From NCBI RefSeq assembly GCF_053078305.1, contig NZ_CP166879.1: DNA of 64,000 nt. One strand, written 5' to 3'. Shown piece after piece: positions 26,405 to 55,951 of the stretch; position 1 is the first letter of the stretch; every line of letters begins with the position of its first letter. The position numbers and the translations under genes are program-made. The notes beneath the pieces were generated by a model that searched no databases, was not told the origin of the DNA, and saw nothing but the letters and a program-made list of their open reading frames with translations.

Positions 26405-26480
<76 letters not shown>

Positions 26481-26515
26481 TTGGGTGGTCTGTGCCTTAC
26501 AGCACTTTCAAATTT

Positions 26516-26591
<76 letters not shown>

Positions 26592-26627
26592 TTGGGTGGT
26601 CTGTGCTTTGCAGCACTTTTCAAATTT

Positions 26628-26703
<76 letters not shown>

Positions 26704-39141: not shown

Positions 39142-40697
<1,556 letters not shown>

Positions 40698-40785: not shown

Positions 40786-41319
40786 ATGCGCCTGCTCCCT
40801 CTCGTTGCCGCAGCGACAGCTGCATTTCTGGTCGTTGCCTGCAGTTCTCCTACGCCGCCGCGTGGCGTGACCGTAGTGAATAATTTCGACGCCAAACGTT
40901 ATCTCGGTACCTGGTATGAGATTGCCCGTTTTGATCACCGCTTTGAACGTGGACTGGAAAAAGTCACCGCAACATACAGCCTGCGTGATGACGGCGGCCT
41001 GAATGTCATTAATAAAGGCTATAACCCTGACAGAGAAATGTGGCAGCAGAGTGAAGGGAAAGCGTACTTTACCGGCGCACCAACTCGCGCTGCGCTGAAA
41101 GTGTCATTCTTTGGTCCTTTCTATGGCGGTTATAACGTTATTGCACTCGATCGGGAATACCGCCATGCGCTGGTTTGCGGTCCGGACCGCGACTACCTGT
41201 GGATACTCTCCCGCACGCCAACCATTTCTGACGAAGTGAAACAGGAGATGCTGGCAGTCGCGACCCGGGAAGGGTTTGATGTCAGTAAGTTTATTTGGGT
41301 ACAGCAGCCCGGTAGTTAG
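40786..41319 (+). CDS. blc: outer-membrane lipocalin Blc
   Basis: ORF 177 aa; lipobox VVAC, lipocalin GTWYEIA motif. Confidence 0.93.
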
Positions 41320-41633
41320 TGAGTGCTGAGTTTCAGACCAATAATCCCCAATACGATTAACGCCAGACTCGCCAGACGCATCGGGTTAGCGGACTCACCG
41401 AGCAGCACAATGCCGGTGATGGCCGCGCCGACTGCGCCAATACCCGTCCACACGGCATAAGCCGTCCCTACTGGTAACGCTTTCATCGCCCAGGCAAGTA
41501 GCGCCATACTGACAATCATCGCCGTCACGGTAATAACACTCGGCGTCAAACGACTAAAGCCGTGGGTATATTTCAGGCCAACGGCCCATACCACTTCCAG
41601 CAGACCAGCAATAACTAAGATAATCCAGGACAT
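41316..41633 (-). CDS. gdx: SMR-family guanidinium exporter Gdx (SugE)
   Basis: Start ATG 41633 ([10 protein letters not shown]...) within ORF 41316..41696; 105 aa, four TM helices, conserved membrane Glu. Confidence 0.92.
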
Positions 41634-41649
41634 ATCAGGCTCCGGAGAA

Positions 41650-41696
41650 TTGGGGCCGTCCCCGGTGAAAAGAGGCGTTTGCAGGTCGTCCTGCAA
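41650..41696 (-). promoter_or_regulatory. guanidine-II riboswitch (mini-ykkC) in the gdx leader
   Basis: Minus strand has two GC-rich hairpins each capped by an ACGR tetraloop: gcagg-ACGA-cctgc (41681-41694) and gggg-ACGG-cccc (41652-41663), 16-nt linker, ending about 17 nt before the gdx ATG. Confidence 0.75.
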
Positions 41697-41763
41697 AGCT
41701 GATGGTTGAACGGATATTTTGCCAGGTGGCAGAGGAATTTCAACTATTACCTTTGTGACTATC

Positions 41764-41800
41764 GCAAAAAAACAAACGGCACGACACAGCTGTCGTACCG
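41764..41800 (-). terminator. rho-independent terminator downstream of ecnB
   Basis: Minus-strand hairpin cggtacgacagctgtgtcgtgccg followed by gtttgttttttt. Confidence 0.75.
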
Positions 41801-41813
41801 TTATTGCTTATTG

Positions 41814-41960
41814 CTATTGCTGCGCTTTCGTTGCTGCGCCAGAAATCGCGTTACCGCCATCAGAAATGTCTTCACCAACGCCACGCGTGGTGTTGCAGGC
41901 AGTTAATACTGTTGAAAGCACCAGAACAGAAAAGATCGCTGCAATTGTCTTCTTCACCAT
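41814..41960 (-). CDS. ecnB: entericidin B bacteriolytic lipoprotein
   Basis: 48-aa reading frame [48 protein letters not shown] read by hand (absent from the ORF track, under size cutoff). Confidence 0.85.
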
Positions 41961-55875: not shown

Positions 55876-55951
55876 GCCCGGATAGCTCAGTCGGTAGAGC
55901 AGGGGATTGAAAATCCCCGTGTCGGTGGTTCGATTCCGCCTCCGGGCACCA
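55876..55951 (+). tRNA. pheU: tRNA-Phe (GAA) with variant T-stem
   Basis: GCCCGGATAGCTCAGTCGGTAGAGCAGGGGATTGAAAATCCCCGTGTCGGTGGTTCGATTCCGCCTCCGGGCACCA; identical to recalled E. coli tRNA-Phe except two compensatory base-pair changes in the T-stem (49-65 and 50-64). Confidence 0.95.

Follow-up and report, generated by a model that had tools for sequence, protein, structure and literature searches.

The leader of gdx (sugE) in the stretch of DNA analysed here (64,000 nt, hereafter the window) is almost certainly best explained as a guanidine-II riboswitch of the gdx/sugE mRNA that works as a translational ON switch. That the element itself is the guanidine-II (mini-ykkC) riboswitch of the Escherichia coli gdx/sugE mRNA is as good as certain, with no result speaking against it, and a guanidine-induced translational ON switch is its very probable mode of action. 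The feature is already known, the same RNA of E. coli gdx having been well studied, and as a discovery it carries little weight, since this exact RNA is a model system for guanidine-II structural work; the original validation of the class is reportedly that of Sherlock et al. 2017. The recognition of a 47-nt riboswitch from the letters of the DNA alone, with an error of one base, is nevertheless useful as a positive control.

Identity of the gdx leader element

The whole window was scanned against all 4227 Rfam families. The sole non-tRNA match at the gathering threshold was RF01068 (Guanidine-II), found on the strand of the gene at 41697-41651 (-) with 50.4 bits against a gathering score of 32 (E = 5.2e-7). 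The match covers the full model (positions 1-48 of 48), with P1 at model positions 1-20 and P2 at positions 36-47. The initial annotation had proposed a textbook guanidine-II architecture upstream of gdx and had named a covariance-model scan as the way to check it; the full-length match on the gene's strand, well above threshold, bears this out. Its span of 41650-41696 had the location right and lay one base off the Rfam span of 41651-41697. The RefSeq records of the locus contained no annotated riboswitch feature, so that the annotation neither supports nor contradicts this assignment.

Guanidine-II RNAs are defined by two hairpins with ACGR tetraloops, two conserved G-C closing pairs and 16 conserved nucleotides (PMC5558903). 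The GG-ACGA-CC of P1 and the GG-ACGG-CC of P2 agree with this definition, and the aptamer is base for base that of the K-12 sugE guanidine-II riboswitch. The two GC-rich hairpins with ACGA and ACGG tetraloops that had been read from the letters are thus present, on the minus strand, a detail that had been left unspecified (Table 1). The linker between them, previously put at 16 nt, measures 14 nt when the stems are fully extended, and reaches 16 nt only when the two outer P1 pairs are omitted; in the numbering of an NMR construct it is 13 nt (PMC9300104). At 14 nt, it falls inside the guanidine-II range of 7-40 nt. The element also lies where members of this class are expected, in the 5' leader of an SMR/Gdx exporter gene with the Shine-Dalgarno sequence (SD) just downstream. 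The SD of gdx is marked as GGAG in Fig. 1 of PMC13064478; it lies 8 nt beyond the end of P2, and the AUG 18 nt beyond, without overlap between P2 and the SD. The second hairpin is therefore close to the ribosome-binding region, as had been noted.

Table 1. Features of the gdx leader and gene, in window coordinates
Feature	Position	Strand	Description
Candidate sigma-70 promoter of gdx	41743-41716	(-)	-35 TTGAAA (41743-41738), 16-nt spacer, TG-extended -10 CAAAAT (41721-41716)
P1 hairpin, guanidine-II aptamer	41697-41678	(-)	UUUGCAGG-ACGA-CCUGCAAA, 8 bp, ACGA tetraloop closed by two G-C pairs
Linker	41677-41664	(-)	CGCCUCUUUUCACC, 14 nt
P2 hairpin	41663-41652	(-)	GGGG-ACGG-CCCC, 4 G-C pairs, ACGG tetraloop
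Expression platform	41651-41634	(-)	Spacer AAUUCUCC (41651-41644), SD GGAG (41643-41640), CCUGAU spacer of 6 nt
gdx start codon AUG	41633-41631	(-)	
gdx (sugE) CDS	41633-41316	(-)	105 aa, SMR-family guanidinium/H+ antiporter

The downstream gene encodes a protein with a PF00893 match of 113.9 bits (E = 5e-33). It is identical to K-12 Gdx (b4148, annotated as 'guanidinium exporter') at 104 of 105 residues, and the closest solved structures are the Gdx-Clo entries 6wk5 and 6wk8 (E = 2e-32). The SMR fold (PF00893), the length of about 105 aa and the near-identity to a characterised Gdx assign it to the Gdx subtype, in agreement with the earlier view of the gene as a guanidinium exporter. The window is a piece of E. 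coli chromosome, with the gene order epmB-efp-ecnA-ecnB-gdx-blc-ampC, and a 531-nt query comprising gdx and its leader (41300-41830) is 100% identical to O145 strains. The convergent gdx (-) and blc (+) overlap by 4 nt at their stop codons (41316-41319). The ampC frame at 39369-40697 (+) is open over its full 377 codons in the window; in the RefSeq record of O145 strain RM9872 (locus L001, 2634-3531), which is identical to the window over the 531 nt around gdx, ampC is annotated as a pseudogene with an internal stop. Elsewhere, the window holds three tandem tRNA genes at 26408-26703 (-), each scoring 69.1 bits with the same aligned sequence and spaced by about 111 nt, as well as a further tRNA gene at 55876-55948 (+), all of them ordinary E. 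coli loci.

The candidate promoter listed in Table 1 comes from a consensus scan only, in which 1 site was found where chance would yield 1.1. Both of its hexamer regions are kept in E. coli, in a Citrobacter-derived CMY-2 plasmid copy and in a Salmonella-type locus on plasmid pPJT1. Transcription of gdx is predicted to start at about 41710-41707, roughly 10-13 nt 5' of P1. A terminator-like hairpin of ecnB, followed by a T run, is located at 41802-41775. Together with the promoter-like site, this hairpin suggests that gdx is transcribed as a separate unit whose leader measures about 75 nt.

Conservation and natural variants of the leader

A scan of one genome per species provided 80 loci encoding close relatives of Gdx. 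RF01068 scored above the gathering score in 43 of them, directly upstream of the gene and on the same strand, and in most of these loci the motif ends within about 30 nt of the start codon. The guanidine-II-bearing loci span Enterobacterales, Burkholderiales, Rhizobiales and others. Among the 20 most similar loci, 19 carry the riboswitch; the exception (L016, from E. albertii) is a contig end without the start of the gene. The scans revealed no other class of guanidine riboswitch, either in the window or in front of the 80 homologues, and this includes the 400 nt upstream of the 37 homologues that have no guanidine-II. The Mesorhizobium loci (L064, L049, L053, L048, L063, L072, L075 and L077) have an extra GC-rich hairpin before the SD and 44-66 nt from P2 to the AUG, compared with 13-28 nt in leaders of the enterobacterial type.

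These loci contain 41 distinct aptamers. P1 pairs 3-6, counted from the loop, are canonical in 38-41 of the 41, with 4-6 pair types at each position, and P2 pairs 1-4 are canonical in all 41, while the two G-C pairs closing each loop are essentially invariant. A compensatory replacement of G-C by A-U occurs, for instance, in P1 of the Salmonella-type locus on pPJT1. Judged from these alignments, the stems of the aptamer are clearly kept by compensatory changes in relatives.

These data bear on the possibility that the two GC-rich hairpins arose by chance and take no part in regulation. The motif is indeed small, but its E-value is 5e-7, and the core pattern GGACGRCC-N(10-40)-GGACGRCC, which occurs once in the window, was absent from all 100 dinucleotide-preserving shuffles. 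Of 80 diverse loci, 43 have the motif upstream of gdx, with compensatory changes in its stems, and direct biochemistry has been published on the same sequence. We therefore assign a chance origin a negligible probability and consider it effectively refuted by these statistics together with the conservation of the motif.

Within E. coli, the leader was found in 5423 of 5426 complete genomes, and 3160 of the complete genomes have a 100% identical copy of the 64-nt segment that starts with P1 and stops just short of the AUG. P1, P2, the SD and the AUG are invariant among the aligned alleles, and GGAGCCUGAUAUG is invariant in all the alleles sampled. Two polymorphisms are common: C/G at position 41674 of the linker (CGCCUC or CGCGUC), which adjoins the putative anti-SD motif, and C/U at position 41647 of the spacer (AAUUCU or AAUUUU). 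The promoter spacer also varies among alleles.

Partial leaders, in which part of the riboswitch is deleted, are present in at most about 7 of the 5426 E. coli genomes. Strain 167 (NZ_CM132950.1, L006 1501-1595), a urine isolate, has a 29-nt leader deletion corresponding to 41676-41648 of the window. The linker and the whole of P2 are lost, P1, the SD and the AUG are retained, and no Rfam match is left; the deletion resembles the laboratory deletion ZX-1, which is reported to be constitutive. A second urine isolate, EC488 (NZ_CP109874.1, L089 73-180), has a 16-nt deletion of CACCGGGGACGGCCCC (41667-41652 of the window), possibly an assembly error, whose extent is precisely P2 plus 4 nt of the linker.

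Truncations were also observed in some IncI-gamma/K1 plasmids carrying blaCMY-2, in which the Citrobacter-derived ampC-blc-sugE homology stops inside P1. Examples are the Salmonella Muenchen plasmid pF18S006-1 (CP082507.1, L005 1430-1564) and H62. In these copies, unrelated sequence beside a colicin gene has taken the place of the 5' half of P1, leaving half a riboswitch (P1 3' strand, linker and P2) and no Rfam match. Other CMY-2 plasmids (L003) carry the complete riboswitch, with 47.2 bits. Deletions and truncations that disrupt the riboswitch are thus found both in natural chromosomes and in CMY-2 resistance plasmids. Gdx is reported to contribute to tolerance of quaternary ammonium compounds and caesium, and such alleles could therefore bear on constitutive tolerance.

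Candidate partners of the Shine-Dalgarno sequence

Published work on this exact RNA supports the interpretation given in the initial annotation and makes the feature a known one. Guanidinium binding and P1-P2 kissing of the E. coli sugE aptamer have been observed by NMR and SAXS, with the stronger guanidinium site in the ACGA loop of P1 and extra G-C pairs in the kissing contact (PMC9300104), and by smFRET combined with simulation (PMC9094411). The same aptamer has been studied by EPR (PMC7544219), and a crystal structure of P1 is available (PDB 5NDI, cited in PMC7544219). Published descriptions treat guanidine-II as a translational ON switch (PMC5558903, PMC12186494), and guanidinium raised Gdx-dependent Cs+ resistance in E. 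coli, which the authors credit to riboswitch-mediated induction of gdx (PMC13064478). The laboratory strain ZX-1 has a 20-bp deletion that removes P2, and its gdx is reported to be constitutive on the basis of RNA-seq with n=1 per condition, that is, at the level of mRNA rather than translation (PMC13064478). This deletion maps to 41665-41646 of the window, with the linker and the SD kept. The mechanism of the guanidine-II expression platform is still only 'proposed' in the literature.

A different role for the leader would be that of an intrinsic terminator or attenuator, formed by P1 and the U-rich tract that follows it (CGCCUCUUUU). A terminator scan does flag 41697-41678 with the tail CGCCTCTTTT, among 3 sites in total where 1.4 would arise by chance. 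The U run is just 4 nt long and begins 6 nt past the P1 stem, and the tract is not conserved in other species. Moreover, the ligand stabilises P1, so that a terminator at this position would make an OFF switch, whereas induction is observed; and ZX-1 is reported to be constitutive even though it retains P1 and the U tract. This explanation, of the wrong polarity for an ON switch, is thus very improbable and was rejected.

For the translational ON switch, we propose a mechanism of which the first steps have been established by others for the same RNA: guanidinium is bound in the tetraloops, after which the two loops pair through their C and G bases to form the P1-P2 kissing complex. In the absence of ligand, the weak 4-bp P2 would be in equilibrium with an alternative helix, in which the P2 loop and 3' strand (GGCCCC) would pair with the SD region GGAGCC, while GGGAC, from the 5' strand and loop of P2, would pair with GUCCU, made up of the last base of the AUG and the four nucleotides after it. 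Initiation would thereby be occluded. Ligand-driven kissing would fix P2 as a hairpin and free the SD and the AUG, Gdx would then be made, and guanidinium would be exported.

The published working model for E. coli and P. aeruginosa (PMC9300104, PMC5558903, PMC9094411) attributes the OFF state of this riboswitch to the linker, drawn as the putative anti-SD of the E. coli RNA (PMC9300104): its CCUCU would pair with GGAG, and kissing would draw the linker off the SD. The CUCU of the E. coli linker can indeed make 4 pairs with GGAG, one of them G-U. The P2 loop and 3' strand show complementarity to GGAGCC of the SD region, in which one A stays unpaired, and the best duplex with the ribosome-binding site (RBS) in E. 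coli is predicted at -7.9 kcal/mol for P2, compared with a weak -3.5 kcal/mol for the linker. The minimum-free-energy fold of the leader keeps P1 and opens P2. In this fold, G59-G60-C61 and C63-C64 of P2 pair with GGAGCC, with one bulged A, and GUCCU at the start codon is paired with GGGAC from the 5' strand and loop of P2. In the Boltzmann ensemble of the E. coli leader, the P2 loop and 3' strand account for 0.41 of the partner mass of the SD window and the linker for 0.00; averaged over 42 leaders, these values are 0.27 and 0.10, respectively. The linker is nonetheless the predicted SD partner in several other species (for example, L021, L022, L032, L043 and L056). Forcing P1 and P2 to form together costs 1.8 kcal/mol in the E. 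coli leader, a low cost, as a switch needs.

Swapping segments between leaders separated the two candidates further. The P2 loop and 3' strand of a leader pair better with its own RBS than with a swapped one (-7.26 versus -5.97 kcal/mol; permutation p = 0.0002, with phylogeny ignored), while the linker does not (-6.83 for own versus -6.94 kcal/mol for swapped; p = 0.63, likewise with phylogeny ignored). The combination of ACGG with GGAGCC comes largely from one enterobacterial clade. Leaders with G as the fourth base of the P2 loop have C after GGAG in 10 of 12 cases; in those with A, this position is U in 8, C in 9, G in 6 and A in 1. This covariation is suggestive only, since both clade structure and the long-leader architecture of Mesorhizobium confound it. 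Alphaproteobacterial leaders show the pairing of P2 more plainly, with perfect helices of 6-8 bp between P2 and the SD-AUG spacer, which change with the loop type; this partner analysis was fitted by construction and is given little weight.

The use of the folding model was confined to ranking possible partners of the SD. The bound state was imitated by imposing P1 and P2, with neither the kissing pseudoknot nor the ligand included. The accessibility of the E. coli SD then changes from 0.48 to 0.35; the lack of a rise is due to the SD pairing with the beginning of the coding sequence instead. The unpaired probability of GGAG in the folded ZX-1 deletion leader is 0.12, compared with 0.25 in the wild type. 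This leader is therefore not predicted to be more open, and simple thermodynamic folding fails to reproduce the reported phenotype. More generally, the predicted SD accessibility of the strain 167 and ZX-1 deletion leaders did not track the expected or reported phenotypes.

Natural and laboratory variants also bear on the linker model. A common C/G polymorphism lies in the linker beside the anti-SD motif, and ZX-1 keeps the linker and the SD and is yet reported to be constitutive, albeit with an altered spacing. Taking this together with its low duplex energy, its zero ensemble weight in E. coli and its indifference to swapping, we consider control through the linker unlikely, though still a serious contender. 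That P2, and not the linker, is the SD-sequestering partner is suggestive only, and we judge the chances to be about even. The more specific proposal applies to E. coli and its close relatives: the anti-SD would be the P2 loop and 3' strand, with the P2 5' strand over the start region; the P2 hairpin and the P2-SD/AUG helix would compete, and P2-deleted isolates would be constitutive. We put it forward tentatively, with a probability slightly short of even. If it holds, the P2-deleted clinical isolates EC488 and strain 167 would be natural constitutive expressers of gdx, like ZX-1. The comparative data thus point to P2 over the linker as the enterobacterial SD partner, which is a testable refinement of the model of the OFF state.

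Control might also be exerted wholly or partly at the mRNA level, by Rho-dependent termination or RNase E decay secondary to translation. The sole in vivo read-out that we found for an E. coli deletion mutant is a rise of gdx mRNA by RNA-seq, with n=1 per condition (PMC13064478), and guanidine-III is reported to shield mRNA from RNase E besides exposing the SD (PMC12186494). We found no direct evidence for mRNA-level control by guanidine-II, and such control is compatible with the translational model and probably downstream of it. As an explanation in its own right we regard it as improbable; mRNA-level effects may, however, add to either the P2 or the linker model.

Comparison with known guanidine riboswitches

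The E. coli K-12 sugE/gdx riboswitch has the same aptamer, ACGA and ACGG loops, linker, downstream gene and neighbouring genes as the element described here. Compared with K-12, the O145-type allele of the window has a single base change, in the promoter spacer; it differs from many other E. coli at positions 41674 (C/G, linker) and 41647 (C/U, spacer).

The guanidine-II riboswitch of P. aeruginosa, known from a crystal structure of P2 (Reiss & Strobel 2017, PMC5558903), belongs to the same family and shares the kissing-loop ligand site. It is also a translational ON switch upstream of a SugE-like exporter (PMC5558903). The two differ in the proposed OFF state: the anti-SD of the P. aeruginosa RNA is proposed to be the linker and the 5' side of P1 (PMC5558903), whereas the best predicted SD partner in E. 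coli is the 3' strand and loop of P2.

Alphaproteobacterial leaders (Bradyrhizobium L031 and L047, and L035) have the same aptamer upstream of a Gdx homologue. In these leaders, a longer perfect helix of -14 kcal/mol is predicted between the P2 loop and 3' strand and the SD-AUG spacer, namely GACGACCC:GGGUCGUC where the loop is ACGA and GGCCCU:AGGGCC where it is ACGG. The corresponding P2-SD helix of E. coli is shorter and contains a bulged A.

Finally, the guanidine-I (ykkC), -III and -IV riboswitches recognise the same ligand and have overlapping regulons, which include Gdx exporters and guanidine carboxylase (PMC12186494). Their folds are unrelated to that of guanidine-II, and classes I and IV act on transcription.
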